In this document: one piece after another, positions 39-18,832 of the stretch
How the letters are laid out: each line of letters begins with the position of its first letter
How positions within the stretch are numbered: position 1 is the first letter of the stretch
Assembly (NCBI RefSeq): GCF_003018255.1
Contig: NZ_CP027440.1
DNA: 64,000 nucleotides
DNA from: Escherichia coli
GTDB lineage: Bacteria > Pseudomonadota > Gammaproteobacteria > Enterobacterales > Enterobacteriaceae
Strand: one strand, 5' to 3'
The notes under the pieces: generated by a model
The model's database searches: none
Told to the model about the DNA's origin: nothing
What the model saw: only the letters and a program-made list of their open reading frames with translations
Translations under genes and position numbers: made by a program

Positions 39-311
39 TTAAGATGGCAATGTGCAGATCATGTTATCAGAGTGGGGCGGTAGCGTATATTCCTTATACA
101 AACCATCATTCATTTCAATGATTGTTATTGAATTATTTATTGTTGTGAATAAAAAGACATTATGAATATTGGTTTGACTTTGCATATCAGGTTTTTTATT
201 ATTCGCTCTAATGTACGAGCCTGTCGTGAATAACGTCGAGAACCCATCCGTTGCGTTTGTGATTATTTTGTTGACTAAACAGACACCCGTTTCTCTGAAG
301 TAAAATCCCAT
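39..311 (-). CDS. hypothetical small protein (90 aa) in AT-rich DNA upstream of the first IS copy
   Basis: ORF track only; AT-rich, no recognisable motif; may be an orphan accessory remnant. Confidence 0.25.
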   Translation of the reverse strand: MGFYFRETGVCLVNKIITNATDGFSTLFTTGSYIRANNKKPDMQSQTNIHNVFLFTTINNSITIIEMNDGLYKEYTLPPHSDNMICTLPS

Positions 312-462
312 ACTAAATCATCACATAACCATGACATTTTTCTGATATTCCCCGGTAACGCCAGATGTCGACTCGCTTATCTCATCCGCCCGACATGTTG
401 TACATGCAATATGTGCGGATTATTATTCATTTTCACGGAGGTTGCTATGTCAACCGGATTAC

Positions 463-1753
463 CAGGGAAAGATCACGTAACGCTGCTTTTTTGCACTAAA
501 TAATTCGCATTTTATGTTTAAAAATTGAGATATTCCTCATTACCTGAAGCTGTTTTTTATTGCGTATACATGTTCAAATACTCCTTACATAATTAAGGAG
601 AACAAAATGGAACTTAAAAAATTGATGGAACATATTTCTGTTATCCCCGATTACAGACAAGCCTGGAAAGTGGAACATAAATTGTCGGATATTCTACTGT
701 TGACTATTTGTGCCGTTATTTCTGGTGCAGAAGGCTGGGAAGATATAGAGGATTTTGGGGAAACACATCTCGATTTTTTGAAGCAATATGGTGATTTTGA
801 AAATGGTATTCCTGTTCACGATACCATTGCCAGAGTTGTATCCTGTATCAGTCCTGCAAAATTTCACGAGTGCTTTATTAACTGGATGCGTGACTGCCAT
901 TCTTCAGATGATAAAGACGTTATTGCAATTGATGGAAAAACGCTCCGGCATTCTTATGACAAGAGTCGCCGCAGGGGAGCGATTCATGTCATTAGTGCGT
1001 TCTCAACAATGCACAGTCTGGTCATCGGACAGATCAGGACGGATGAGAAATCCAATGAGATCACAGCTATCCCAGAACTTCTTAACATGATGGATATTAA
1101 AGGAAAAATCATCACAACTGATGCGATGGGTTGCCAGAAAGATATCGCAGATAAGATACAAAAACAGGGCGGTGATTATTTATTCGCTGTAAAAGGAAAT
1201 CAGGGGCGGCTTAATAAAGCCTTTGAGGAAAATTTCCCACTGAAAGAATTAAATAATCCAGAGCATGACAGTTACGCAATTAGTGAAAAAAGTCACGGCA
1301 GAGAAGAAATCCGTCTTCATATTGTTTGCGATGTCCCTGATGAACTTATTGATTTCATGTTTGAATGGAAAGGTCTGAAGAAATTATGCGTGGCAGTCTC
1401 CTTTCGGTCAATAATAGCAGAACAAAAGAAAGAGCCAGAAATGACGGTCAGATATTATATCAGTTCTGCTGATTTAACCGCAGAGAAGTTCGCCACAGCA
1501 ATCCGAAACCACTGGCACGTGGAGAATAAGCTGCACTGGCGTCTGGACGTGGTAATGAATGAAGACGACTGCAAAATAAGAAGAGGAAATGCAGCAGAAT
1601 TATTTTCAGGGATACGGCACATCGCTATTAATATTTTAACGAATGATAATGTATTCAAGGCAGGGTTAAGACGTAAGATGCGAAAAGCAGCCATGGACAG
1701 AAACTACCTGGCGTCAGTCCTTGCGGGGAGCGGGCTTTCGTAATCTTTCCCTG
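463..1753 (+). mobile_element. ISAs1-family (H-repeat type) insertion sequence, copy 1, 1291 bp
   Basis: Imperfect terminal inverted repeats CAGGGAAAGATCACG (left, from 463) and CGTAATCTTTCCCTG (right, ending 1753); single 378-aa transposase ORF; near-identical second copy at 7125..8415. Confidence 0.8.
607..1743 (+). CDS. ISAs1-family DDE transposase (H-repeat-associated protein, YdcC/YhhI-like), 378 aa
   Basis: Protein begins [11 protein letters not shown] and carries the [13 protein letters not shown] region typical of H-rpt proteins; SD AAGGAG 7 nt upstream of ATG. Confidence 0.85.
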
Positions 1754-2359
1754 AACACCGAGGTGCTGAATAACCGCACCACGGATGTGATAAACAACCA
1801 TGCTGAGACCATCGGCAACAATCAGGTGATTGCGGTTACCAACAATCAGATACAGACGGTGGGCGTTAACCAGATAGAGACGGTGGGCAGTAACCAGATC
1901 ATTAAAGTGGGCTCTGTTCAGGTGGAAACGATTGGACTTGTTCGTGCGCTGACCGTGGGCGTGGCGTATCAGACGACGGTAGGTGGCATTATGAACACCT
2001 CGGTGGCCCTGATGCAGTCCTCGCAGATCGGTTTGCATAAATCGTTGATGGTCGGGCTGGGTTATGACGTCAAAGTCGGAAATAACGTTACCTTCACCGT
2101 TGGTAAAACGAAAAAGGATGATACCGGACAGACCGCGATTTACTCCGCCGGTGAGCATCTGGAACTCTGCTGTGGTAAGGCAAGGCTGGTGCTGACTAAG
2201 GACGGACAAATTTTTCTCAACGGCACAAAAATTCATTTGCAGGGTAAGGAGCAGGTTAATGGTGACTCACTGTTGATTAACTGGAACTGTGCAGCCTCGA
2301 AATCCCCACCGAAGACCCCTGATGAAAAGCAGGATACGCCGGATATGAGAGAGTACTGA
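1754..2359 (+). pseudogene. vgrG: vgrG 3' remnant (T6SS spike C-terminal repeat region), 5' part removed at the IS right end
   Basis: Translation shows VgrG-type repeats (VGVNQIETVGSNQIIKVGSVQVETIG); the track ORF start at 1721 lies inside the IS, so there is no native start. Confidence 0.65.
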
Positions 2360-2425
2360 TCCCGTACCTGTTCGGTATTCAGTAACAAACAAGCATTAAA
2401 AATAAACAGAAGAAGGAATTGAATC

Positions 2426-5400
2426 ATGAGCGGAAAACCAGCGGCGCGTCAGGGAGATATGACTCAGTATGGCGGTCCCATTGTCCAGGGTTCGGCAGGT
2501 GTAAGAATTGGCGCGCCCACCGGCGTGGCGTGCTCGGTGTGTCCGGGCGGGATGACTTCGGGCAACCCGGTAAATCCGCTGCTGGGGGCGAAGGTGCTGC
2601 CCGGCGAGACGGACCTTGCGCTGCCCGGCCCGCTGCCGTTCATTCTCTCCCGCACCTACAGCAGCTACCGGACGAAGACGCCTGCGCCGGTGGGGATTTT
2701 TGGCCCCGGCTGGAAAGCGCCTTCTGATATCCGCTTACAGATACGCGATGATGCACTGGTACTCAACGACAACGGCGGACGGAGCATTCACTTTGAGCCG
2801 CTGCTGCCGGGTGAGGCGGTGTACAGCCGCAGCGAGTCAATGTGGCTGGTGCGCGGTGGTAAGGCAGCGCAGCCGGACGGCCACACGCTGGGGCGGCTGT
2901 GGGGGGCGCTGCCGCCGGATATCCGGTTAAGCCCGCATCTTTACCTGGCGACCAGCAGCGCACAGGGACCGTGGTGGATACTGGGGTGGTCAGAGCGGGT
3001 GCCGGGTGCTGAGGACGTACTGCCAGCGCCGCTGCCGCCGTACCGGGTGCTGACGGGGCTGGCGGACCGCTTCGGGCGGACGCTGACGTACCGGCGTGAG
3101 GCCGCCGGCGACCTGGCCGGGGAAATCACCGGCGTGACGGACGGTGCCGGGCGTGAGTTCCGTCTGGTGCTGACCACGCAGGCGCAGCGTGCGGAAGAGG
3201 CCCGCACCTCTTCGCTATCTTCTTCTGACCGTCCCCGCCCTCTCTCAGTCTCAGCGTTCCCCGACACACTGCCCGGTACCGAATACGGCCCCGACAGGGG
3301 TATCCGCCTTTCGGCGGTGTGGCTGATGCACGACCCGGCATACCCGGAGAGCCTGCCCGGTGCGCCACTGGTGCGGTACACGTATACGGAAGCCGGTGAA
3401 CTGCTGGCGGTATATGACCGCAGCAATACGCAGGTGCGCGCTTTCACGTATGACGCGCAGCACCCGGGCCGGATGGTGGCGCACCGTTACGCGGGAAGGC
3501 CGGAGATGCGCTACCGCTACGACGATGCGGGGCGGGTGGTGGAGCAGCTGAACCCGGCAGGCCTGAGTTACCGCTACCAGTATGAGCAGGACCGCATCAC
3601 CGTCACCGACAGCCTGAACCGGCGTGAGGTGCTGCATACAGAAGGCGGGGCCGGGCTGAAGCGGGTGGTGAAAAAAGAACTGGCGGACGGCAGCGTCACG
3701 CACAGCGGGTATGACGCGGCAGGAAGGCTCACGGCACAGACGGACGCGGCGGGACGGCGGACAGAGTACGGCCTGAATGTGGTGTCCGGCGATATCACGG
3801 ATATCACCACGCCGGACGGGCGGGAGACGAAATTTTACTATAACGACGGGAACCAGTTAACGGCGGTGGTGTACCCGGACGGGCTGGAGAGCAGCCGGGC
3901 ATATGATGAGCTGGACAGACTGGTATCGGAGACATCGCGCAGCGGGGAGACAGTACGCTACCGCTACGATGACGTGCACAGTGAGTTACCGGCGACGACA
4001 ACGGATGCGACGGGCAGCACCCGGCAGATGACCTGGAGCCGCTACGGGCAGTTGCTGGCCTTCACCGACTGCTCGGGCTACCAGACCCGCTATGAATACG
4101 ACCGCTTCGGCCAGATGACGGCGGTTCACCGCGAGGAAGGTATCAGCCTTTACCGCCACTATGACAACCGTGGCCGGTTAACCTCGGTGAAAGACGCACA
4201 GGGCCGTGAAACGCAGTATGAGTACAACGCCGCAGGCGACCTGACTGCCGTTATCACCCCGGACGGCAACCGGAGCGAGACACAGTACGATGCGTGGGGA
4301 AAGGCGGTCAGCACCACGCAGGGCGGGCTGACGCGCAGTATGGAGTACGATGCTGCCGGACGTGTCATCAGCCTGACCAACGAGAACGGCAGTCACAGCG
4401 ACTTCAGCTACGATGCGCTGGACCGCCTGGTACAGCAGGGCGGCTTTGACGGGCGGACGCAACGTTATCATTATGACCTGACCGGAAAACTCACGCAGAG
4501 TGAAGATGAGGGGCTTGTCATCCTCTGGTACTACGATGAATCGGACCGTATCACTCACCGCACGGTGAACGGCGAACCGGCAGAGCAGTGGCAGTATGAT
4601 GGCCACGGCTGGCTGAGAGAAATCAGCCACCTGAGCGAAGGCCACCGTGTTGCCGTCCACTATGGCTACGACGATAAGGGCCGTCTGACCGGGGAGCGCC
4701 AGACGGTGGAGAACCCGGAGACGGGGGAACTGCTGTGGCAGCATGAGACGAAACAGGCATACAACGAACAGGGGCTGGCAAACCGCGTCACGCCGGACAG
4801 CCTGCCGCCGGTGGAGTGGCTGGCCTATGGCAGCGGTTATCTGGCGGGCATGAAGCTGGGCGGGACGCCGCTGCTGGAGTACATGCGGGACAGACTGCAC
4901 CGGGAGACGGTGCGCAGCTTCGGCAGCATGGCAGGCAATACAGCCGCATATGAACTGACCAGCACTTACACCCCCGCAGGCCAGTTACAGAGCCGGCACC
5001 TGAACAGCCTGGTGTTTGATTGTGACTATAACTGGAATGACAACGGCGACCTGATGCGCATCAGCGGCCCGCGACAGACGCGGGAATACGGCTACAGCGC
5101 CACGGGCAGGCTGGAGAGCGTGCGCACCCTCGCACCGGACCTGGACATCCGCATCCCGTATGCCACCGACCCGGCGGGCAACCGGCTGCCGGACCCGGAG
5201 CTGCACCCGGACAGTACACTCACAGTGTGGCCGGATAACCGAATCACCGAAGACGCGCACTACCTGTACCGTTACGATGAATACGGCAGGCTGGCGGAGA
5301 AGACGGACCGCATCCCGGCGGGTGTGATACGGACGGACGACGAGCGGACCCACCACTACCACTACGACAGCCAGCACCGCCTGGTGTTCTATACGCGGAT

Positions 5401-6586
5401 ACAGCATGGCGAGCCACTGGTCGAGAGCCGCTACCTTTACGACCCGCTGGGCCGCCGGACGGGTAAACGGGTATGGCGGCGGGAGCGTGACCTGACGGGG
5501 TGGATGTCGCTGTCGCGTAAACCGGAGGTGACGTGGTACGGCTGGGACGGCGACCACCTGACGACGGTGCAGACCGACACCACGCGTATCCAGACGGTAT
5601 ATCAGCCGGGGAGCTTCGCGCCGCTCATCCGCATCGAAACAGACAACGGTGAGCGGGAGAAAGCGCAGCGCCGCAGCCTGGCGGAGAAGCTGCAGCAGGA
5701 AGGGAGCGAGGACGGGCACGGCGTGGTATTTCCGGCTGAACTGGTGCGGCTGCTGGACAGACTGGAGGAAGAAATCCGGGCAGACCGCGTGAGCAGTGAA
5801 AGCCGGGCGTGGCTTGCGCAGTGCGGGCTGACGGTGGAGCAACTGGAAAAACAGGTGGAGCCGGAATACACACCGGCGCGAAAAGTTCATCTTTACCACT
5901 GCGACCACCGGGGACTGCCGCTGGCGCTTATCAGCGAAGACGGCAATACGGTGTGGAGCGCGGAGTATGATGAATGGGGAAACCTGCTTAATGAGGAGAA
6001 CCCGCATCATGTGTATCAGTCATACCGTCTGCCGGGGCAGCAGCATGATGAGGAGTCGGGGCTGTACTACAACCGGAACCGGTACTACGATCCGTTGCAG
6101 GGGCGGTATATCATCCAGGACCCGATAGGGCTGGCGGGGGGAATAAACCCGTACAGTTATGTTATGAACAATCCTGTGCAATGGATTGATCCATTGGGAT
6201 TAGCTCATACTTCAGGAAAATGGAAGGACTGTGGTAAAGGTTGTCGAATCCGAATAGATGGCGATGCTGTTGGTGACGGAAGACATTTGCATTGGGAGTG
6301 TAAAAATGGGAGTGGTGTAATGGGGGAATTTGGAGGTATGTCCCATGGTGAGGATTACTCATCAGCACCAAATAGCATTAAGAAATGTGCAAAAAAATAT
6401 GGTTTCGAGCCAGAACCAAGTAAAGATCTGTCATGCAAAACCTCCGGGCTATCAACTACTGATGCGGCTCTTGCAACTGGTGCTACAATTGGCGCAGGGT
6501 ATGTTATATATAGAGTGATTCGATTTATACCTTCACTTGCACCACCTCTTTGGTGGTCAATACCTGCAAACGTTGTTACTCCATGA
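2426..6586 (+). CDS. rhsE: Rhs family polymorphic toxin, full length (1386 aa): N-terminal domain, YD-repeat shell, PxxxxDPxGL motifs, divergent C-terminal tip
   Basis: N-terminus [31 protein letters not shown] and many YD repeats; DPIGLAGG at ~6120-6140 and WIDPLGL at ~6184-6204; GC-rich core then AT-rich ~125-aa tip; SD GAAGAAGGA upstream. Symbol is by position only. Confidence 0.85.
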
Positions 6587-6957
6587 TTAAAACGGATAAT
6601 GGAGATTATATAATGAGCGATTTTGACATTGTGAGTTCAATTGACTGGCATGATGGGGTTTTGTTAGAAGTAAAAACGACATTCAAAGAATCTCATTTTA
6701 ACATGACGTTATTTATTGACATTTATAAAAATGAGAACATTAGGGAAAAAATGATAGTTGAATTTTCTGATGTAGATGATTTAGTGTTCGCTATGGATTC
6801 TGCTGAGTTAATCGATAATCACAAGTCAGGTAATATAAGTAATGGGTATGTAAAGAAATTAAAAAACAAAAGGATATATAAATTTTTTCTTTATTTTTCT
6901 GATGGCTTATTAAGCATGACATTTAAAAATTTACAATTAATAAAACCATTAGAGTAA
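6583..6957 (+). CDS. putative cognate Rhs immunity protein (RhsI-like, ~124 aa)
   Basis: ATG overlaps the rhs TGA stop (ATGA) around 6583-6586; AT-rich like the toxin tip; no hydrophobic segment. Start could instead be 6550 or 6613. Confidence 0.6.
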
Positions 6958-6995
6958 CCAAATAAAAGGACTGGAGGAATCAGGGGAAGATCATT

Positions 6996-7021
6996 AAAGT
7001 TGTGATTATCATCACAACTTT
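6996..7021. repeat. perfect 11-bp inverted repeat AAAGTTGTGAT-TATC-ATCACAACTTT
   Basis: Read directly; lies ~40 bp after the immunity stop; terminator-like or protein-binding palindrome. Confidence 0.5.
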
Positions 7022-7124
7022 AATCTTGGTTTCACCTTGTTGATTTGATTAAAATTTAATCGCCAAATAATTAAATATATTAGAAAAGGACGTCTGGTGA
7101 ACATTCAAAGTCTTCTTGAGCATA

Positions 7125-8415
7125 CAGGGAAAGATCATCAGAAGTACACTTTTTGTACTAAATAATTCGCATTTTATGTTTAAAAATTGAGATATTCCTC
7201 ATTACCTAAAGCTGTTTTTTATTGCTTATACATGATCAAATACTCCTTACATAATTAAGGAGAACAAAATGGAACTTAAAAAATTGATGGGACATATTTC
7301 TATTATCCCCGATTACAGACAAACCTGGAAAGTGGAACATAAATTGTCAGATATTCTACTGTTGATTATTAGTGCCGTTATTTCTGGTGCAGAAGGCTGG
7401 GAAGATATAGAGGATTTTGGGGAAACACATCTCGATTTTTTAAAGCAATATGGTGATTTTAAAAATGGTATTCCTGTTCACGATACCATTGCCAGAGTTG
7501 TATCCTGTATCAGTCCTGCAAAATTTCACGAGTGCTTTATTAACTGGATGCGTGACTGCCATTCTTCAGATGATAAAGACGTCATTGCAATTGATGGAAA
7601 AACGCTCCGGCATTCTTATGACAAGAGTCGTCGCAGGGGAGCGATTCATGTCATTAGTGCATTCTCAACAATGCACAGTCTGGTCATCGGACAGATCAGG
7701 ACGGATGAGAAATCTAATGAGATTACAGCTATCCCTGAACTTCTTAACATGCTGGACATTAAAGGAAAAATTATCACAACTGATGCGATGGGTTGCCAGA
7801 AAGATATTGCAGAGAAGATACAAAAACAGGGAGGTGATTATTTATTCTCTGTAAAAGGAAACCCGGGGCGGCTGAATAAAGCTTTTGAGGAAAAATTTCC
7901 ACTGAAAGAATTAAATAATCCAGAGCATGACAGTTACGCAATTAGTGAAAAGAGTCACGGCAGAGAAGAAATCCGTCTTCACATTGTTTGCGATGTCCCT
8001 GATGAACTTATTGATTTCACGTTTGAATGGAAAGGTCTGAAGAAATTATGCGTGGCAGTCTCCTTTCGGTCAATAATAGCAGAACAAAAGAAAGAGCCAG
8101 AAATGACGGTCAGATATTATATCAGTTCTGCTGATTTAACCGCAGAGATGTTCGCCACAGCAATCCGAAACCACTGGCACGTGGAGAATAAGCTGCACTG
8201 GCGTCTGGACGTGGTAATGAATGAAGACGACTGCAAAATAAGAAGAGGAAACGCCGCAGAATTATTTTCAGGGATACGGCACATCGCTATTAATATTTTA
8301 ACGAATGATAAGGTATTCAAGGCAGGGTTAAGACGTAAGATGCGAAAAGCAGCCATGGACAAAAACTATCTGGCGTCAGTCCTTGCGGGGAGCGGGCTTT
8401 CGTAATCTTTCCCTG
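7125..8415 (+). mobile_element. ISAs1-family (H-repeat type) insertion sequence, copy 2, 1291 bp, same orientation as copy 1
   Basis: Same terminal repeats (CAGGGAAAGATCA ... CGTAATCTTTCCCTG) and same length as copy 1; internal sequence near-identical with scattered substitutions. Confidence 0.8.
7269..8405 (+). CDS. ISAs1-family DDE transposase (H-repeat-associated protein), 378 aa, copy 2
   Basis: Same length and register as 607..1743 with several substitutions (e.g. [15 protein letters not shown] vs [15 protein letters not shown]). Confidence 0.85.
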
Positions 8416-8419
8416 TATT

Positions 8420-8707
8420 GTGAAATCATCAAGAGTACATATAGATCATGATAAAGATATTTTTGATGGCCTTGACAAAATCTTGGCTTTTTCCGATAAA
8501 AATAAGCATGAGTATTTTTTATATATAAAGGCATATTGGCTCAGTTTATACTTTTGTGAAATTTCTCAGAAAGTGAGAGAAAGAGATAAGTTGTCATTTT
8601 ATTATGATGAATTTTCTGTCCGATTTCCTAATGTTGTCCTATATCCGACATACTTCCAATTGCATGGTTTAGCATCTGAAAAGTCATTGTTAATTCGAGA
8701 CGCTTGA
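8420..8707 (+). pseudogene. AT-rich ORF abutting the IS right end; possible orphan Rhs immunity remnant
   Basis: 95-aa ORF begins 5 bp after the IS end; composition resembles the immunity gene; no convincing native start context. Confidence 0.3.
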
Positions 8708-8986
8708 TTGTCCACTATATCAAAATAGTCATGCCCCGGAATTTTCTCACATTAGTCCATAAGGGATTCAATTTTTGTAATTGCACCCTGAAAAAACCGC
8801 AAAAGTGCTTTGTCGTGTCCTGTCGCAATGAAGTCTGGTGTTAATGTTATACTTTAATTGATATTTAAAGAGATGGCTTCTTTGCTTATATAAATACCCA
8901 TCTATTCTTTCTCAAAAATATTGGCTCAGATTAACCATGTTCCACGCAAACAATTTTCAAACATTCATCAATAGATAAGGAATTCC

Positions 8987-9454
8987 ATGATTATACGACC
9001 AGTCAAACCTTCAGATGTTGAACCATTACTGGATATGCTGCTTGCCAGTGGACAATTTAATCAAGATGGCCTTCATCATGTACAAAAAACACTAACACAT
9101 TATTTCTCAGGTCAATCTGCCGATTTATGGTTTAGTGCAGAACACTTAGGACTGGCAGGGATTGCCTATTGCGCTCCTGAAGTGATGACAAATGATGTCT
9201 GGAATTTATTAATGCACTGGATCAGTCCTTCCCATCAGCGCCAGGGAGTGGGACATCTGCTGATTAACGAAATAGAAAAGGAGCTCACAATTAAACAGGC
9301 AAGACTACTTTTAGTAGAGACCTCCAGCTATGTCGATTTTAGTGCCGCCCGCGCATTTTATACATAACAGGGCTTTATCAATGAAGCTATAATACGCAAT
9401 TACTATGATGTTGGTGAGGATAAATTAATCTTCACTAAAAATATGCAATCGTGA
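8987..9454 (+). pseudogene. GNAT-family N-acetyltransferase with an in-frame TAA (9365-9367); reading frame continues 28 codons to TGA at 9452-9454
   Basis: SD AAGG 7 nt upstream; acetyl-CoA motif QRQGVGH; the stop sits where GNAT motif B expects a lysine (AFYT-stop-QGF). Confidence 0.65.
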
Positions 9455-9520
9455 GATAAAATATGCTTTTAACTCATATTGAAACATTGCTTAAGCAACT
9501 TGGTTGCTGCATATGATTCT

Positions 9521-10090
9521 TTAGCCCGCGGTGACTCGCTTGCCGCTGGTAACAAACGTGCCAGCGCCTAAATGATGCAACGTATTGAGCTTATCATCAT
9601 CAAACTGCCAGCGGCCTTCGACAAATACCCGTGCGTCTGCCGCTGCTGATACCACTTCGCCAAACAGCGTGTCGTATTTCTCTTGCGCGGAAGTCGCTGG
9701 TAGCAATCGGCACTCCATCCACGCCAGACATTTCTCTTCAACAAGTGGCAAACCAAGCACCGGACCTTTCACCACCGGAATGCCATAGCAATAAAATTTA
9801 TCCTCTTCACGCCCAGATACACTTCCCACTGCCCACGTCCAGTTAGTCGCTGCAACGCCTGGGATAACGATGCCAAATTTACCGTTACGCTCAATCAACT
9901 CCCTGGTCCATGTCGACTTATCTACCACAATCGCCACGCGTGGAGGTTCAAACTCCACCGGCATTGACCAGGCTGCAGCCATAATGTTACGCCGCTGGGA
10001 TTGCTCATCGAAACTGGTGATCAAGACAGTTGGGCCATGATTTAACAGACGGCTGGCATGGTGTAATTCGACGGGAATGAATTGGCTCAC
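9521..10090 (-). CDS. yddH: flavin reductase-like protein YddH (189 aa)
   Basis: Full-length ORF; sequence recalled as K-12 YddH. Confidence 0.8.
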   Translation of the reverse strand: MSQFIPVELHHASRLLNHGPTVLITSFDEQSQRRNIMAAAWSMPVEFEPPRVAIVVDKSTWTRELIERNGKFGIVIPGVAATNWTWAVGSVSGREEDKFYCYGIPVVKGPVLGLPLVEEKCLAWMECRLLPATSAQEKYDTLFGEVVSAAADARVFVEGRWQFDDDKLNTLHHLGAGTFVTSGKRVTAG

Positions 10091-10264
10091 GATATCGCCT
10101 CGCTATGAAGGGTGTTTTAAAAGCGTAGCTCGTAACGCAATAAGTAACGAAATTAACGGGATTGGCGATTTGCGAACGTGATGCATGTCCGCGATCGCAC
10201 AAAATAGCCGGTGCGGCGTCTATTCCAGGTTATAAGTTGAGAAAACCACTAAGGGAAACGCCTG

Positions 10265-11110
10265 ATGACGCCCATTCTGAATCATTATTTTGCCCGTATT
10301 AACTGGTCGGGAGCTGCTGCGGCCAATATTGATACGCTTCGTGCATTGCACCTGAAACACAATTGCACCATTCCGTTTGAAAACCTCGACGTTTTGCTGC
10401 CGAGGGAAATACAGCTTGATGATCAATCGCTGGAAGAGAAACTGGTGATAGCCCGTCGTGGTGGTTACTGTTTTGAGCAGAATGGCGTGTTTGAGCGGGT
10501 GTTACGCGAGCTGGGGTTTAACGTTCGCAGCTTGTTAGGGCGCGTAGTGTTATCAAATCCGCCAGCATTACCGCCGCGCACCCATCGTTTGCTGTTGGTG
10601 GAACTGGAAGGGGAAAAATGGATTGCTGATGTCGGTTTCGGTGGGCAGACGCTAACCGCGCCGATTCGTTTAATGCCGGATATCATGCAAACCACGCCAC
10701 ACGGAGAGTATCGGTTGTTGCAAGAGGGTGATGATTGGGTGTTGCAGTTTAATCATCATCAGCACTGGCAGTCGATGTACCGTTTTGATCTCTGCGAGCA
10801 GCAACAAAGCGATTATGTGATGGGCAATTTCTGGTCGGCGCACTGGCCGCAGTCGCATTTTCGCCATCATTTGCTGATGTGTCGCCATTTGCCGGACGGT
10901 GGCAAGCTAACGCTGACCAATTTTCATTTTACCCATTATGAAAATGGGCACGCAGTTGAGCAGCGAAATCTACCAGATGTGGCGTCGTTATATGCCGTGA
11001 TGCAGGAACAGTTTGGTCTGGGCGTAGATGATGCGAAACATGGCTTTACTGTGGATGAGTTAGCGCTGGTGATGGCGGCGTTTGATACGCACCCGGAGGC
11101 GGGAAAATAA
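10265..11110 (+). CDS. nhoA: N-hydroxyarylamine O-acetyltransferase (281 aa)
   Basis: MTPILNHYFARINWSG N-terminus and arylamine N-acetyltransferase length. Confidence 0.9.
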   Translation: MTPILNHYFARINWSGAAAANIDTLRALHLKHNCTIPFENLDVLLPREIQLDDQSLEEKLVIARRGGYCFEQNGVFERVLRELGFNVRSLLGRVVLSNPPALPPRTHRLLLVELEGEKWIADVGFGGQTLTAPIRLMPDIMQTTPHGEYRLLQEGDDWVLQFNHHQHWQSMYRFDLCEQQQSDYVMGNFWSAHWPQSHFRHHLLMCRHLPDGGKLTLTNFHFTHYENGHAVEQRNLPDVASLYAVMQEQFGLGVDDAKHGFTVDELALVMAAFDTHPEAGK

Positions 11111-11119
11111 TTTATGTCA

Positions 11120-11200
11120 GGTTGCCGGATGTGGCGTAAACGCCTTATCCGGCCTACATTAGCCCGGTTGTAGACCTGATAAGCGAAGCGCATCAGGCAA
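11120..11200. repeat. two REP (repetitive extragenic palindromic) elements between convergent nhoA and yddE
   Basis: TGCCGGATGTGGCGTAAACGCCTTATCCGGCCTAC and TGTAGACCTGATAAGCGAAGCGCATCAGGCA match the E. coli REP family. Confidence 0.8.
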
Positions 11201-11205
11201 CGGTT

Positions 11206-12099
11206 TCAGAGTTCAATTGCCCATTCGGCATGAAACAAAATCACCGCCACGCCAGAAATGGTGACTTTCTCCGGTTGGTTATCACGAATTGTCACCGTCA
11301 CTTCAATCACGCCGTCACGCCCTAATGCGCGCCCCTGATGGCCTTTAACACGCAACACGTTGCCATCGTGGGGCAATACGTTGTGATGTACTAACCATGC
11401 ACCCATCGGGCCATTGGCATTGCCAGTCACCGGATCTTCCACAATACCAATGGCAGGCGAGAACATACGACCGTCGGTTTCGTTTTTGTCTGGGCGGATC
11501 TGGAACGGGAAGAAACCATTGCAGCCAATCTGTTTGCTGATAGCGGTCAGCGCATTAAGGTCAGGCGAAAGGGCGTCGATATCCACTTCCGGTTTCAGTG
11601 GGATCATCACTTTTGAGTGTCCTGTGGTTGCCACCTGAATTGGCAAGCCTGGCAGAATATCGTCTTCAGTGAGATGAAGCGCGTTGATAATCGCCGCACG
11701 TGTTTCACCTTCCAGCGGTGACTCAAAGCCCGGCGTACCTTGTTCCAGCGAAATACGATAATCATCGTTGTGCTTTTCGATAGTCACGCGATGTTTTCCT
11801 GCCAGCGATGTTTGCCAGACCGTGCAATTTCCTAAACCTAACACCTTTGCACGTACATAGTGCGCAGCTACTGTCGCGTGACCACAAATCGGAACTTCAA
11901 CCGTTGGCGTAAAGTAGCGGATGCGCACATCGCTGTCGTCGCTGTGCAGCAGAAAAGCAGTTTCCGAATGACCTAACTCGCGGGCGATAAGCTGCATTTG
12001 CGCTTCACTGAGATTATCGGCGGGGAAAACAACACCGGCAGAATTGCCGCGAAACGGTTGAGAGGTAAAAGCATCGACGTGGTAAACCTGCGGTTTCAT
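11206..12099 (-). CDS. yddE: PhzF-family isomerase-like protein YddE (297 aa)
   Basis: Full-length ORF; K-12 synteny. Confidence 0.8.
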   Translation of the reverse strand: MKPQVYHVDAFTSQPFRGNSAGVVFPADNLSEAQMQLIARELGHSETAFLLHSDDSDVRIRYFTPTVEVPICGHATVAAHYVRAKVLGLGNCTVWQTSLAGKHRVTIEKHNDDYRISLEQGTPGFESPLEGETRAAIINALHLTEDDILPGLPIQVATTGHSKVMIPLKPEVDIDALSPDLNALTAISKQIGCNGFFPFQIRPDKNETDGRMFSPAIGIVEDPVTGNANGPMGAWLVHHNVLPHDGNVLRVKGHQGRALGRDGVIEVTVTIRDNQPEKVTISGVAVILFHAEWAIEL

Positions 12100-12178
12100 T
12101 AATGTTCTCCTGTGGCTGGAGAACTATCATAGCCTGCAAGTGGCCGGAGAGCGAAGGGCTGTCCGGCCCGCGTGAGAA

Positions 12179-12859
12179 TTAACGCCGCGAACGCACAATC
12201 TGATACCGACGAGTAAAGTACTCAAACGGCGCGCTCCAGACATGCACCAGTCGGGTGAACGGGAAGAGCAGGAAGATGGTCATTCCAAGCACCAGATGAA
12301 CGCGGAATATAAAGGCGACACCATCAAGATGCGTAGATGCACCGCCCTGGAAAGTGACAATGCTTTGCGCCCAGCCCACCAGCTTCATCATTTCACTGCC
12401 GTCCGGATGTTGTGCTGAAAAAGGAATGGTGGTTAACCCAAGAATGCACTGAATTAACAAAATGGCGAGGATCAGGATATCCGCACCAGAAGACGTCGCC
12501 CTGATACGCGGATTTGTTAAACGACGCACCAGTAGCCCCGCACCGCCAATCAGCGTCAATACCCCGCATATTCCGCCGAGGATCATCGCCATCTGCTGTT
12601 TTACCGCCACCGGCAGAAACCACGCGTACATCCAGTGCGGCGTTAACATGCCGAACAGATGACCGAAGAAGATCCCCAGAATGCCGATATGGAACAAGTT
12701 CGACCATAGCACCATCCCGCGTTTATCCAGCATCTGGCTGGAGGCGGCACGCCAGGTATACTGCCCGTAATCGTAGCGCAGCCAGCTTCCAAGGATAAAA
12801 ACCGTGCCACACAAGTACGGGTAGATATCGTAAAAAAAGACGTTCAGATACTGAATCAT
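12179..12859 (-). CDS. narV: nitrate reductase Z gamma subunit (226 aa)
   Basis: Multi-span membrane protein; narZYWV order. Confidence 0.9.
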
Positions 12860-13551
12860 TTCCCACCTCCCGCACTGATGTCGACATACTGCGGCGCGAC
12901 ATCCTGGCTAAAGCGTCGCTGATATTGATTAAGCGGCGAGCTGTCACACGCCGTGGCGTTATCTTCAATAAACTTCACCTGTTCTTCTTCCCACACCGCA
13001 TCCAGCGCCTGGCGGGTGTCGTCACGCTCTTCACTGCGAATCTGTTTTGTGACACTGTCACTTGATAGAGGGCTTCCTGCCAGTTGCAACAGGGCGTCAA
13101 ATAACGCGTACCACGGTGCCTCGCGTTGTTTTAAGCGTCCGCCAAGCAGGGCGAGGATCGGCGCAACGTTGAGTAATCCTTCTTTCGCCTGATCGTCCGG
13201 AAGTATGCTTAAATACTCCAGATACAGCGGTAGATAATCGGGCAGTTCCCTACAATTCAGTTGCAGACCGACCTTTTCATACTCCGCCAGCAGGTCCACC
13301 ATTGCCTGGCCGCGATCGCGGGACTCGGCATGAACATGTTCAAACAGCAGCAGCGACGTGGTGCGCCCGCGGTCAAACACTTCACACCATTCGGCCTGTT
13401 TATCCAGCAGCGGCGCGTTGAGCAGGTCGAGTGCAAAATCGGTGAGCATCGGTGCGTCGCGGCGGATCAACGCCAGCGCGTCCTCCTTACATTCCCACAA
13501 CAGCTCGTCCGGATACTCCATCAACAGGCCGATCACTTTGAGGATCTGCAT
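12856..13551 (-). CDS. narW: nitrate reductase Z assembly chaperone (231 aa)
   Basis: NarJ-like; 4-bp overlap with narV. Confidence 0.9.
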
Positions 13552-15095
13552 TATTCGCCCTCCGCTTTGTCGCGCACTTCGGTGATGTTGATGGCATCGA
13601 TACGGCTACTGTTGAACAGGTTGAATTTGCTGTCCGAGCCGTGGCAACCGTCGCCAAAGGTAAAACCGCAGCCATTGCGTTCTGCGAAGGCATCGCCCGC
13701 CATTTCCCGATGACTGGTTGGAATGACAAAACGGTCTTCATAGTTGGCAATGGCGAGGTAGCGATACATCTCTTCGACCTGGGCGACGCTCAGGCCTACT
13801 TCGTCAATGGCGCGGGTATCGGTAACGCCTTCCACGGTTTGTGAACGCATATAGTGGCGCATCGCCATCATCCGTTTTAGCGCCCGCAGTACCGGACCGG
13901 TATCGCCAGCACTTAACATATTGGCGAGATATTGCACAGGAATACGCAGGCTTTCGATGGCGGGCAGCACGCCTTCGCTTTTCGGCAAGCCGCCCGCATC
14001 AGCGTAGGACTGAATCGGTGACAGCGGAGGAACGTACCAGACCATCGGCAGGGTGCGATATTCAGGGTGCAGCGGTAGCGCCAGTTTCCAGTCCATCGCC
14101 ATTTTGTAGACTGGCGAACGCTGGGCAGCTTCAATCACGTTTTGTGGAATACCTTGTTTCAGGGCTTCTTCGATCACTGAGGGATCGTGCGGATCGAGGA
14201 ACACTTCGCACTGGCGTTCATAGAGGTCAACTTCGCGCTCGGTGCTCGCCGCTTCCTCGATGCGGTCGGCGTCGTAAAGCAGCACGCCCAGATACCGGAT
14301 GCGACCCACGCAGGTTTCTGAGCACACGGTGGGTTGGCCTGACTCAATTCGTGGGTAACAGAAGATGCATTTTTCTGACTTGCCGCTTTTCCAGTTGAAG
14401 TAGATTTTTTTGTACGGACAACCGCTAATGCACAAACGCCAGCCACGGCATTTATCCTGATCGATCAGCACAATGCCGTCTTCTTCGCGTTTGTAGATAG
14501 CGCCGCTTGGGCAGGTCGCCACGCAGCTGGGATTGAGGCAGTGTTCGCACAAGCGCGGTAGGTACATCATGAAGGTGTTTTCAAACTGCCCGTACATCTC
14601 CTTTTGCATGGCCTCGAAGTTGCGGTCACGGGCGCGTTTTTCGAATTCGCCGCCCAACAATTCTTCCCAGTTTGGCCCCCAGATCACTTTGTCCATCCGT
14701 TTGCCGTCAATCAGTGAACGCGGGCGAGCAGTAGGGATATGTTTGCCTTCCGGTGCGCTATGCAAATGTTCGTAGTCGAAGGTGAAAGGTTCGTAGTAAT
14801 CATCAATCTGCGGCACCACCGGGTTGGCGAAGATTTTGGTTATTACGCCCATCTTGCTGCCCAGACGCGGGCGGATCTTGCCATTCACATCACGCACCCA
14901 GCCGCCTTGCCACTCTTCCTGATCTTCCCAGTTTTTCGGATAACCAATGCCCGGTTTGGTTTCGACGTTGTTAAACCATGCGTACTCCATGCCTTCGCGT
15001 CCGGTCCAGACGTTTTTACAGGTCACCGAACAGGTATGGCAGCCGATACATTTATCGAGGTTAAGCACCATGCCGACTTGCGAACGTATTTTCAT
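13551..15095 (-). CDS. narY: nitrate reductase Z beta subunit, Fe-S (514 aa)
   Basis: Several Cys clusters (CIGCHTC, CEHCLNPSCVATCP). Confidence 0.9.
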   Translation of the reverse strand: MKIRSQVGMVLNLDKCIGCHTCSVTCKNVWTGREGMEYAWFNNVETKPGIGYPKNWEDQEEWQGGWVRDVNGKIRPRLGSKMGVITKIFANPVVPQIDDYYEPFTFDYEHLHSAPEGKHIPTARPRSLIDGKRMDKVIWGPNWEELLGGEFEKRARDRNFEAMQKEMYGQFENTFMMYLPRLCEHCLNPSCVATCPSGAIYKREEDGIVLIDQDKCRGWRLCISGCPYKKIYFNWKSGKSEKCIFCYPRIESGQPTVCSETCVGRIRYLGVLLYDADRIEEAASTEREVDLYERQCEVFLDPHDPSVIEEALKQGIPQNVIEAAQRSPVYKMAMDWKLALPLHPEYRTLPMVWYVPPLSPIQSYADAGGLPKSEGVLPAIESLRIPVQYLANMLSAGDTGPVLRALKRMMAMRHYMRSQTVEGVTDTRAIDEVGLSVAQVEEMYRYLAIANYEDRFVIPTSHREMAGDAFAERNGCGFTFGDGCHGSDSKFNLFNSSRIDAINITEVRDKAEGE

Positions 15096-18000
15096 TTTTT
15101 CGCCTCCTGTACCTGATCGCGACCTTCATCATCCAGCCAGTTAACGTTCTTCATCTTGCGGATCATGATGAATTCGTCACGGTTCGAGCCGACGGTGCCG
15201 TAGTAATTAAAGCCCCAGGCCAGCTGCGCGTAACCGCCAATCATATGCGTTGGTTTCGGACAAACGCGGGTGACCGAGTTATGAATGCCGCCGCGCATGC
15301 CAGTTACTTCCGAACCAGGAATATTCATAATGCGTTCCTGGGCGTGATACATCATGGTCATACCCGGCGGTACACGTTGGCTGACCACCGCGCGGGCAGT
15401 CAGCGCGCCGTTGGCGTTAAACACTTCCACCCAGTCGTTATCGACAATGGTCAGTTCACGGGCATCGGTTTCGCTAATCCAGACAATCGGTCCACCGCGA
15501 GAGAGCGTCAGCATTAGCAGGTTTTCACTGTAGGTTGAGTGAATGCCCCATTTCTGATGCGGCGTCAGGAAGTTAAGTGCTTTTTCCGGGAAGCCGTTTG
15601 GCGGTATCTGGCGCATTTCACTGACGCTACGGGTGTCGATAGGCGGGCGATAAGCCACCAGGCTTTCACCAAAAGCACGCATCCACGGATGATCCTGATA
15701 GAGCTGCTGGCGTCCCGACAGCGTGCGCCACGGAATTAACTCATGAACGTTGGTGTACCCCGCGTTATAGGAAACGTGATCGCTTTCCAGACCGGACCAT
15801 GTGGGGCTGGAGATAATTTTACGTGGCTGCGCCTGAATATCGCGAAAGCGAATCTTCTCGTCCTCTTTGTGCAGCGCCAGATGGGTATGTTCGCGTCCGG
15901 TGATCTCGCCCAGCGCCTGCCACGCTTTGACTGCAACATGACCATTGGTTTCCGGTGCAAGAGCCAGAATCACTTCTGATGCGTCAATGGCGGTGTCAAT
16001 CAGCGGACGCCCCTGTGCCGGGCCTTCACGCTTGGTGTAGTTGAGTTTGCCGAGGAAATCGATTTCATCCTGGGTATTCCACGAAATCCCTTTACCGCCG
16101 TTGCCAAGTTTGTCCATCAATGGCCCGAGCGAGGTAAAGCGTTCATAGGTAGCAGGGTAGTCGCGTTCCACCGCTACAATATTCGGCGCGGTTTTACCCG
16201 GGATCAGATCGCATTCGCCTTTGCGCCAGTCGAGCACTTCACACGGCTGGGAGAGTTCTGCCGGAGAGTCATGCAGCAGTGGTTGTAATACCACGTCGGT
16301 TTCTTTGCCAAGATGGCCCACGCACACTTGCGAAAATGCTTTGGCAATACCTTTGTAGATTTCCCAGTCGCTGCGTGATTCCCAGGCCGGATCGACCGCC
16401 GCAGAAAGCGGATGAATAAATGGATGCATATCCGAGGTGTTCATATCGTCTTTTTCATACCAGGTGGCGGTGGGCAGAACGATATCGGAGAACAGGCAGG
16501 TACTGGACATACGGAAGTCGAGCGTCACCAGCAGGTCGAGCTTGCCTTCAATCGCCGCAGTTTGCCACTCGACTTCTTCTGGTTTGATCCCGTCGCTGGC
16601 ACCGAGTTCCTCACCCTGAATCCCACTTTCGGTTCCCAGCAGATACTTCTGCATATACTCGTGACCTTTGCCGGAGGAGCCAAGCAGGTTAGAACGCCAG
16701 ACAAACAAATTACGCGGATGATTGCTGCCCCTATCTGGTTGTTCGCAGGCCATGCGTAAATCGCCCGATTTCAGCGCCTGGGCGGTGAATTCTGTGGGGG
16801 ATAATCCGGCCTTGTCGGCTTCAGCTTTAATCCCGAGCGGGTTACACCCCAGCTGCGGCGCAGAAGGTAGCCAGCCCATACGTTCGGCACGAACGTTGAA
16901 ATCAATCAGATGACCGCTGTACTTACTGGCATCGGCGAGCGGTGAAAGTAACTCCTGAGCAGAGACTTTTTCATAGCGCCATTGACTGGAATGATTGTAG
17001 AAAAACGAGGTGCTGTTCATCTGGCGCGGTGGGCGGTTCCAGTCGAGCGCAAAGGCCAGCGGCAACCAGCCAGTTTGTGGGCGCAGTTTTTCCTGACCGA
17101 CATAGTGTGCCCATCCGCCACCGCTTTGCCCGACACAACCGCAGAAGATCAGCATATTGATCATTCCCCGGTAGTTCATGTCCATGTGGTACCAGTGGTT
17201 AACACCTGCGCCGAGGATAATCATCGAGCGCCCATGCGTTTTATGGGCAGTATCGGCAAATTCACGAGCGATGGTTTCAATATACTGGCGCGGCACACCG
17301 GTAATTTGCTCACCCCAGGCTGGGGTGTACGGTTTGATTTCAGCGTAATCTTTCGCGCTGTTTTCATCTTCCAGCCCGCGATCGAGGCCGTAATTCGCCA
17401 GTACCAAATCATAAACGCTGACCACCGGACAGGTGTTGCCATCGGCTAATGTCAGGTTTTTAACGGGCAATTGGCGCACCAGGACCGGATTGTGTTTTAC
17501 GCTGCGAAAATGCGGATTTTCAATGCCGCCAAAGTAGGGGAAGGCCACGCCTGCAACGGCATCATGTTGACCGAGCAGAGTTAACGACAATTCGGTTTCC
17601 GTACCGGCGGCAATGGATTCCAGATTCCATTTGCCTTTTTCTCCCCAGCGAAAACCAATCGAACCGTTCGGCACCACCAGTTCGCCTGCTGTATTAACTG
17701 CTACGGTTTTCCACTGCGGATTGTTGCTTTCGCCCAGTCCATCTACCAGGTCAGACGCGCGGATCATGCGCCCGGGTACGTAGCTGCCATCGTCGCGAGG
17801 TTCCAGCATTACCAGCATCGGCATGTCGCTGTAGCGGCGGCAGTAGTTGATAAAGTAGTCGCTGGGATTATCGAGATGAAACTCTTTTAAAATCACATGG
17901 CCCATTGCCATCGCCAGGGCGCTATCAGTGCCTTGTTTTGGTGCCAGCCACTGGTCGCACAATTTGGCCACTTCAGAGTAGTCAGGGGTAATTGCGATGG

Positions 18001-18832
18001 TTTTAGTGCCTTTGTAGCGTACTTCGGTAAAGAAATGGGCGTCCGGCGTACGTGTCTGCGGTACGTTAGACCCCCAGGCGATGATGTAACTGGAGTTATA
18101 CCAGTCGGCAGATTCTGGCACGTCGGTTTGCTCACCCCAGGTCATCGGCGAGGCGGGCGGCAGGTCGCAATACCAGTCGTAGAAGCTTAAACAGGTGCCA
18201 CCTAACAGCGACAGATAGCGTGTTCCGGCGGCGTAAGAAACCATCGACATCGCCGGAATCGGCGAGAACCCGGCAACGCGATCCGGGCCGTAAGTTTTGA
18301 TGGTCCAGACGTTAGCGGCGGCAATCAGCTGATTTAGCTCCTGCCAGTTGGAGCGGATAAAGCCACCGCGTCCACGCACTTGTTTATAGCTCAGGCACTT
18401 TTGCGGATCGTTCATAATCGATGCCCACGCCAGTACCGGATCGCTGTGTTGCTTGAGGGCTTCGCGCCACAGTTCAATCAGTCGTTTACGAATGAGCGGG
18501 TATTTCAGGCGGTTAGCGCTGTAGAGATACCAGGAGTAACTTGCGCCACGCGGGCAGCCGCGAGGTTCATGATTTGGCAGGTCAGGGCGAGTGCGCGGGT
18601 AGTCGGTCTGTTGGATTTCCCAGGTCACCAGACCATTTTTAACGTAGATTTTCCAGCTACAGGAGCCTGTACAGTTAACACCGTGGGTGGAACGCACGAT
18701 TTTGTCGAACTGCCAACGCTGGCGATAGCTGTCCTCCCAGTCGCGGTTGCTGTGCATCACCTGTCCGTGACCATCGGCAAAGGTTTCGCCCTTTTGTTTA
18801 AAGTAGCGAAAGCGATCCAAAAGTTTACTCAT
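15092..18832 (-). CDS. narZ: nitrate reductase Z alpha subunit, molybdopterin (1246 aa)
   Basis: Track ORF trimmed to the MSKLLDRFRYF start (ATG at 18830-18832); ATGA overlap with narY. Confidence 0.9.
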   Translation of the reverse strand: MSKLLDRFRYFKQKGETFADGHGQVMHSNRDWEDSYRQRWQFDKIVRSTHGVNCTGSCSWKIYVKNGLVTWEIQQTDYPRTRPDLPNHEPRGCPRGASYSWYLYSANRLKYPLIRKRLIELWREALKQHSDPVLAWASIMNDPQKCLSYKQVRGRGGFIRSNWQELNQLIAAANVWTIKTYGPDRVAGFSPIPAMSMVSYAAGTRYLSLLGGTCLSFYDWYCDLPPASPMTWGEQTDVPESADWYNSSYIIAWGSNVPQTRTPDAHFFTEVRYKGTKTIAITPDYSEVAKLCDQWLAPKQGTDSALAMAMGHVILKEFHLDNPSDYFINYCRRYSDMPMLVMLEPRDDGSYVPGRMIRASDLVDGLGESNNPQWKTVAVNTAGELVVPNGSIGFRWGEKGKWNLESIAAGTETELSLTLLGQHDAVAGVAFPYFGGIENPHFRSVKHNPVLVRQLPVKNLTLADGNTCPVVSVYDLVLANYGLDRGLEDENSAKDYAEIKPYTPAWGEQITGVPRQYIETIAREFADTAHKTHGRSMIILGAGVNHWYHMDMNYRGMINMLIFCGCVGQSGGGWAHYVGQEKLRPQTGWLPLAFALDWNRPPRQMNSTSFFYNHSSQWRYEKVSAQELLSPLADASKYSGHLIDFNVRAERMGWLPSAPQLGCNPLGIKAEADKAGLSPTEFTAQALKSGDLRMACEQPDRGSNHPRNLFVWRSNLLGSSGKGHEYMQKYLLGTESGIQGEELGASDGIKPEEVEWQTAAIEGKLDLLVTLDFRMSSTCLFSDIVLPTATWYEKDDMNTSDMHPFIHPLSAAVDPAWESRSDWEIYKGIAKAFSQVCVGHLGKETDVVLQPLLHDSPAELSQPCEVLDWRKGECDLIPGKTAPNIVAVERDYPATYERFTSLGPLMDKLGNGGKGISWNTQDEIDFLGKLNYTKREGPAQGRPLIDTAIDASEVILALAPETNGHVAVKAWQALGEITGREHTHLALHKEDEKIRFRDIQAQPRKIISSPTWSGLESDHVSYNAGYTNVHELIPWRTLSGRQQLYQDHPWMRAFGESLVAYRPPIDTRSVSEMRQIPPNGFPEKALNFLTPHQKWGIHSTYSENLLMLTLSRGGPIVWISETDARELTIVDNDWVEVFNANGALTARAVVSQRVPPGMTMMYHAQERIMNIPGSEVTGMRGGIHNSVTRVCPKPTHMIGGYAQLAWGFNYYGTVGSNRDEFIMIRKMKNVNWLDDEGRDQVQEAKK

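Follow-up and report, generated by a model that had tools for sequence, protein, structure and literature searches.

A single-base ochre codon very probably marks a nonsense pseudogene allele of a GNAT acetyltransferase gene in Escherichia coli

Introduction

In a 64,000-nucleotide stretch of Escherichia coli DNA (contig NZ_CP027440.1; the whole stretch is called the window here), an open reading frame for a GNAT acetyltransferase ends at a TAA codon, and the same frame continues behind it to a TGA. This arrangement raises the question of whether the 126-residue product is a natural protein or what is left of a longer enzyme. If it is a remnant, one has to ask whether the stop codon is real, whether it could be bypassed, what the truncation would do to the protein and how the gene came to be broken. 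We compared the gene with other E. coli genomes, with homologous proteins and with solved and predicted structures.

Results

Gene layout and reading frame

The original prediction, which was made from the letters of the window, described a good Shine-Dalgarno sequence, an intact QRQGVGH stretch, a TAA at 9365-9367 and an in-frame TGA at 9452-9454. These coordinates are correct to the base (Table 1). The QRQGVGH stretch comprises residues 84-90 (nucleotides 9236-9256). Translated in one frame, 8987-9454 ends in SAARAFYT, a stop, QGFINEAIIRNYYDVGEDKLIFTKNMQS and a second stop; the TAA is the sole one in frame, and 28 sense codons lie between it and the TGA. The string originally given for the part behind the stop was QGFINEAIIRNYYDVGEDKLIFTKNMQS without its last two residues, QS. 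In these 28 codons, 27 residues are identical to the C-terminus of the intact 155-residue E. coli alleles.

Table 1. Features of the GNAT gene in the window
Feature	Position	Strand	Remarks and basis
Shine-Dalgarno-like AAGGA	8977..8981	+	5-nt spacer to ATG; read from the sequence
GNAT start codon ATG	8987-8989	+	Sequence
Truncated GNAT ORF, 126 codons plus TAA	8987..9367	+	ORF list, translation, Pfam, RefSeq WP_001563339.1
Codon 25, AAT (Asn), derived D25N	9059..9061	+	Column is Asp in 51 of 59 homologues
Codon 77, CAC (His), derived L77H, strand β4	9215..9217	+	Column is Leu or Ile in 59 of 59 homologues
Acetyl-CoA-binding motif A, Q84-R-Q-G87-V-G89, intact in the window allele	9236..9253	+	Translation
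Premature ochre TAA; ancestral AAA (Lys127)	9365..9367	+	DNA alignments to intact alleles and the 042 remnant
Orphaned 3' coding remainder, 28 codons plus original TGA	9368..9454	+	Translation; β6 (131-141) and β7 (144-152) in the intact protein

The stop codon replaces a conserved lysine codon

When 8420-9520 was compared by megablast with 5426 complete E. coli genomes, three copies proved identical and 13 were ~96-98% identical. The coding sequence in the latter group is 468 bp long and encodes 155 amino acids. In the DNA alignment, the codon at the position of the TAA is AAA in the intact E. coli alleles, and there is no other difference in length. Strain 042 retains a 3' remnant with the same Y115 and V116 codons as the window, and this remnant also has AAA at the position. 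In an alignment of 59 homologues, the column of the stop codon is Lys in 49 sequences, Arg in 5 and another residue in 5, so that Lys or Arg is found in 54 of 59. Given the AAA of the intact alleles and the 042 remnant and the lysine column in the homologues, the lesion is evidently a single A-to-T transversion at 9365, which converted Lys127 (AAA) to an ochre stop. This agrees with the original proposal of one AAA or AAG to TAA change at a conserved lysine.

The protein search found full-length homologues of 154-157 amino acids in Salmonella, Enterobacter, Phytobacter, Kluyvera, Citrobacter, Serratia, Yokenella, Aeromonas and others. It could be argued that the protein naturally ends at residue 126 and that the open frame downstream is a coincidence, since RefSeq/PGAP lists the 126-residue ORF as an ordinary GNAT coding sequence, with no pseudogene flag, and the truncated product still passes the Pfam cut-offs. 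However, every one of the 59 homologues extends at least 26 residues past the stop column, and this part of the alignment contains an invariant residue (K146) and several nearly invariant ones (G129, F130, E133, A134 and K151). None of the 73 database matches ends at the stop column. The near-identity of the codons behind the stop to the intact C-terminus also argues against a natural end, as does the fact that the missing part forms strands β6 and β7. A natural short form of the GNAT protein is ruled out by the length of the homologues and their conservation past the stop, and a coincidental open frame is correspondingly implausible in the extreme. The stop codon is located at a sense codon of both close and distant orthologues and the homologous frame continues beyond it, as in a nonsense pseudogene. 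The orthologue alignment that had been proposed as a check thus places Lys at the stop codon and shows that the orthologues do not end there.

The TAA allele is present in independent genomes

The three identical copies are from the strains DETEC-S792, JNE23-011 and JNE112863. They are independent complete genomes from China and Japan, and their 1101-bp regions are identical. We also searched with a 55-base query centred on 9365, which under the 28-base word rule of megablast matches only genomes carrying T at that position; T was found in exactly 3 of the 5426 complete genomes, the same three. In public assemblies (NCBI, ENA and Logan), 391 contigs encode exactly the 126-residue product.

The TAA could be a sequencing or assembly error in a gene that is intact in the source strain. 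This is conceivable beforehand, and the window differs from the intact alleles by a single base at the codon in question. Against it, the TAA is present in the identical 1101-bp region of three independently sequenced complete genomes and its exact product on the 391 contigs, and the base change, a transversion, is not in a homopolymer run. A sequencing error is ruled out by the three genomes and the contigs, and there is next to no chance that the source gene is intact. The TAA allele is real, and it is established in a lineage or a recombining segment rather than confined to a single isolate.

The window comes from a fourth genome with the TAA allele. It differs from JNE112863 by 5 mismatches over 57-13500, after which the two diverge in narW/H/Z. 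DETEC-S792 diverges from the window within yddH, directly 3' of the GNAT gene. The jumps in divergence among the genomes with the TAA allele are sharp: ~1-5% in narW/H/Z relative to the JNE strains (window 13500-18500), and in yddH relative to DETEC-S792 (window 9550-10000). Judged from the alignments, these jumps indicate recombination breakpoints close to the GNAT locus.

Suppression or readthrough of the stop codon is unlikely

A real stop codon could still be bypassed by an ochre suppressor tRNA or by readthrough, and full-length enzyme would then be made. The downstream frame is fully open and unchanged, as this explanation predicts, but the same is equally expected of a young lesion. A lysine tRNA with the anticodon TTA, i.e. 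a tRNA-Lys(UUA) ochre suppressor, was found in 0 of the 5426 complete E. coli genomes, including the three with the TAA allele; this exclusion covers the tRNA-Lys-derived type and the complete-genome collection, and the source genome lies outside that collection. The control query, wild-type tRNA-Lys, matched 32,017 places in 5425 genomes. The 64-kb window contains no tRNA gene. One derivative of the TAA allele has acquired a further substitution, R85C, within the QRQGVG stretch of motif A, which also speaks against continued production of the enzyme. Of the stop codons, UAA is terminated most efficiently in E. coli. We therefore regard bypass of the TAA as very unlikely. The originally suggested check for an ochre suppressor was thus negative for the tRNA-Lys-derived type in the complete genomes, with a working control.

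The gene encodes a GNAT protein that is distinct from RimI

The assignment of the gene to the GNAT family, first made from the sequence alone, is borne out by Pfam. The 126-residue product scores 28.9 bits with PF13508 (Acetyltransf_7, cut-off 27) and 24.8 bits with PF00583 (Acetyltransf_1, cut-off 20.7). The intact orthologue scores 39.7 and 33.5 bits, respectively, both above the gathering scores. The acetyl-CoA pyrophosphate-binding loop has the motif A pattern Q/R-x-x-G-x-G/A in the form Q84-R-Q-G87-V-G89. In the homologue alignment, G87 is kept in 58 of 59 sequences and G89 is invariant.

The best match of the sequence to a solved structure is PDB 2r7h (E = 1.4e-14, residues 2-150), the putative GNAT protein DDE_3044 from Desulfovibrio desulfuricans. 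The same entry also ranks first when the model of the intact orthologue is compared with known folds (TM 0.89, rmsd 1.8 Å, 25% identity), and it shares its length and its β1-β7 topology with that model. Compared with 2r7h, the window product lacks the last 29 residues, which align to β6-β7. This is a structural-genomics entry and is itself functionally uncharacterised. RimI, the bS18-alanine N-acetyltransferase (PDB 5isv and 2cnm), has the same GNAT fold, and both its motif A and its A..(F/L)Y...GF stretch align with the protein. Residues E111 and Y125 align with the region that holds the catalytic Glu and Tyr of RimI. However, the gene is in a variable island and not at the rimI locus, and its scores are well short of the RimI equivalog models (37.4 against a cut-off of 86.4 for TIGR01575, 26.7 against 173 for NF007025). 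The gene is therefore not a RimI orthologue. The AAC(6')-Ia family model is not reached either (NF033078, 20.9 against a cut-off of 265), and that match is confined to residues 66-103. As for a TacT/AtaT-type toxin or a defence component, there is no conserved adjacent partner or antitoxin gene and no PADLOC match. A literature search for four RefSeq accessions of the gene returned no papers.

The stop codon removes the last two strands of the fold

An AlphaFold model of the intact allele was built from the 59-sequence alignment (mean pLDDT 96.3, pTM 0.90). The predicted elements are, in order, β1 (2-5), α1 (8-21), α2 (26-40), β2 (47-52), β3 (56-64), β4 (71-79), α3 (88-102), β5 (107-113), α4 (116-127), β6 (131-141) and β7 (144-152). 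The model of the intact orthologue thus has the full canonical GNAT topology, β1-α1-α2-β2-β3-β4-α3-β5-α4-β6-β7. The stop codon falls on codon 127, the last residue of α4 in the model, and β6 and β7 are not encoded in the 126-residue product, which does not have the complete fold.

In GNAT enzymes, β6 and β7 complete the central sheet and contribute to the acceptor-substrate site. With the A-to-T change at 9365, translation would end after Thr126 at the C-terminal end of α4. The product would be without two of the seven strands of the central sheet, and it would retain motif A as well as E111 and Y125, the residues that align with the RimI catalytic pair. Since the stop removes both strands, a folded and active 126-residue enzyme is improbable. 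The protein is most likely misfolded or inactive, and by the model a loss of enzyme function is very likely. A weaker alternative is that the 126-residue product has been kept as an acetyl-CoA-binding fragment with some residual role.

Other E. coli lineages carry other broken alleles

Several other disabled forms of the gene are found in E. coli. The allele of the B2 type (Nissle 1917, ATCC 11775 and others) carries three lesions, namely W72* (TGG to TGA), the loss of 1 bp from an A run, and the substitution G89R of the invariant glycine; a diagnostic 55-mer found it in 415 genomes. Its 71-residue fragment (Nissle 1917 locus 3001-3467) is listed in RefSeq as the plain hypothetical protein WP_000470661.1. 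In the 042 type, a 463-bp 5' deletion corresponding to 8830-9292 of the window has removed the first 306 bp of the gene together with the region upstream of it. Only codons 103-155 are kept, as an unannotated 162-bp 3' remnant (042 locus 4411-4572). The 042 type accounts for ~228 genomes (660 with a match of any extent, less the 432 in which coverage is 80% or more), a class defined from 40 listed matches, among which every match of this type covered only gene positions 307 (or 313) to 466-468. Strain GF4-3 has a separate frameshift, its own 1-bp deletion in the same A run as the B2 type.

An intact ORF is present in 12 of the 5426 complete genomes, or 12 of the ~660 with any trace of the gene, a count in which LP5-1 was inferred from coordinates identical to those of PT62 and one further full-length record was left out. 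Three of the 12 have missense changes: G87E in VE-T9 and D145G in XJ5.2 affect strongly conserved positions, and I79N affects a variable one. The remaining ~4766 of the 5426 complete genomes have no trace of the gene. By these comparisons, the GNAT gene has been disabled independently at least four times in E. coli, and K127* is one of these events. The lesion in the window is thus not an isolated accident.

The gene lies at the end of a variable region

The GNAT gene is located beside yddH at the end of a low-GC variable region of the Rhs-core/ISAs1 type. Its GC content is 40%, compared with 51% in the adjacent core segment yddH-yddE. At a larger scale, a low-GC block at ~6400-9500 (28-42%, against 51-53% in yddH-nhoA-yddE-nar) marks an accessory segment. 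Two ORFs for ISAs1/H-repeat transposases (607-1743 and 7269-8405), which are ~96% identical to each other, bracket an Rhs core ORF of 1386 amino acids (2426-6586) and a small ORF downstream of it. A vgrG/gp5-like fragment is present at 1721-2359. The 95-residue ORF at 8420-8707 is a 3' remnant of a gene annotated as 'hypothetical protein' or 'aminopeptidase' (e.g. WP_044697422.1), which is full length in 6EVA-type genomes. Its homology begins at 8416, right behind the ISAs1 transposase gene, and it has no Pfam match.

In other Enterobacterales, the gene has different neighbours. The Salmonella orthologue is in an island of the integrase/AlpA/CbtA type. The Phytobacter copies are beside an IS3-type transposase gene or copper-response genes, and upstream of genes for a MarR-family protein and an MFS transporter. 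By tblastx and gene tables, the GNAT gene itself is all that the E. coli, Salmonella and Phytobacter loci have in common. PADLOC defence-system models gave no match at the locus. For the long upstream region, the Rfam search for structured RNAs and riboswitches gave only a chance-level snoRNA match inside the ORF, and a promoter and terminator scan found nothing above shuffled expectation. The gene behaves like stand-alone cargo.

Discussion

Combining the comparisons, we consider it highly probable that the allele in the window is a true nonsense pseudogene of a GNAT gene for ~155 amino acids that stands alone and was acquired horizontally, and we infer that its activity is lost. The pseudogene is an ordinary one, and its significance is mainly one of annotation. 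What has been gained is the exclusion of an artefact, a map of the structural elements that are missing, and a place for the lesion among several parallel inactivations.

The original prediction called the lesion very recent, and this is borne out only in part. The stop is young in evolutionary terms only inasmuch as the downstream frame is untouched and still open. On the other hand, the allele is fixed in a well-sampled lineage, and it stands on a haplotype that also carries D25N and L77H. Relative to the closest intact allele, that of strain 2014C-3075, the window has 2 synonymous changes, 6 nonsynonymous changes and 1 nonsense change. Between the two intact allele types, 8 of the differences are synonymous and 3 nonsynonymous. 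The nonsynonymous excess on the TAA haplotype is suggestive only and not significant (Fisher p = 0.07). We also constructed ten sequences of possible precursor haplotypes and searched for exact matches among 15 billion proteins. Only the intact variant of the 2014C type was present; that collection contains neither an intact ORF with the missense changes of the window nor a TAA allele that lacks these changes.

The several independent inactivations would fit a cargo gene in the low-GC Rhs/ISAs1 region that is dispensable and under relaxed selection. It has also to be considered that the loss is adaptive, i.e. that the acetyltransferase activity is costly in E. coli and that independent knock-outs, including the TAA, were selected and did not merely drift. 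In line with this, at least four independent disabling events have hit one 468-bp gene, intact ORFs survive in only 12 of the ~660 genomes that retain any trace of it, and some of these 'intact' alleles themselves carry missense changes at conserved positions (G87E and D145G). However, a dispensable gene of horizontal origin that decays neutrally is expected to leave the same pattern. The broken copies are mostly of just two clonal types, B2/Nissle and 042, and hence represent few independent events. Intact orthologues persist in many other Enterobacterales, and the gene has neither a match to known defence or toxin models nor a partner gene. Adaptive loss is therefore improbable. Neutral decay appears sufficient to explain the pattern, and nothing in it seems to require a selected loss.

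The allele resembles ordinary nonsense pseudogenes among E. coli accessory genes, such as the many strain-specific ones that PGAP flags. Like them, it has a single premature stop with an open frame downstream, it is restricted to a lineage, and parallel lesions are found in other lineages. Unlike them, it carries no flag in RefSeq, since GNAT models still recognise the truncated ORF. WP_001563339.1 (126 amino acids) and WP_000470661.1 (71 amino acids) are both listed as ordinary RefSeq proteins, yet they are fragments of a 155-residue enzyme. Pan-genome or functional inferences are therefore in error wherever they treat the two as working genes.

The locus provides a case in which a cargo gene of horizontal origin has decayed in parallel, at the junction between the Rhs/ISAs1 region and yddH. 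It is also a single chromosomal slot with alternative gene content, either pptA or the GNAT gene. The original prediction placed pptA at the corresponding position in K-12, and this proved right: in K-12, the gene for the tautomerase PptA, a protein unrelated to GNAT, occupies the same slot between an ISAs1/H-repeat transposase gene (ydcC) and yddH. Of K-12 pptA, the window contains a degenerate stretch from the final ~45 bp, at 9487-9522 between the GNAT stop and the yddH stop, and no other PptA-like coding sequence. The arrangement suggests that the low-GC segment bearing the GNAT gene has displaced most of pptA.
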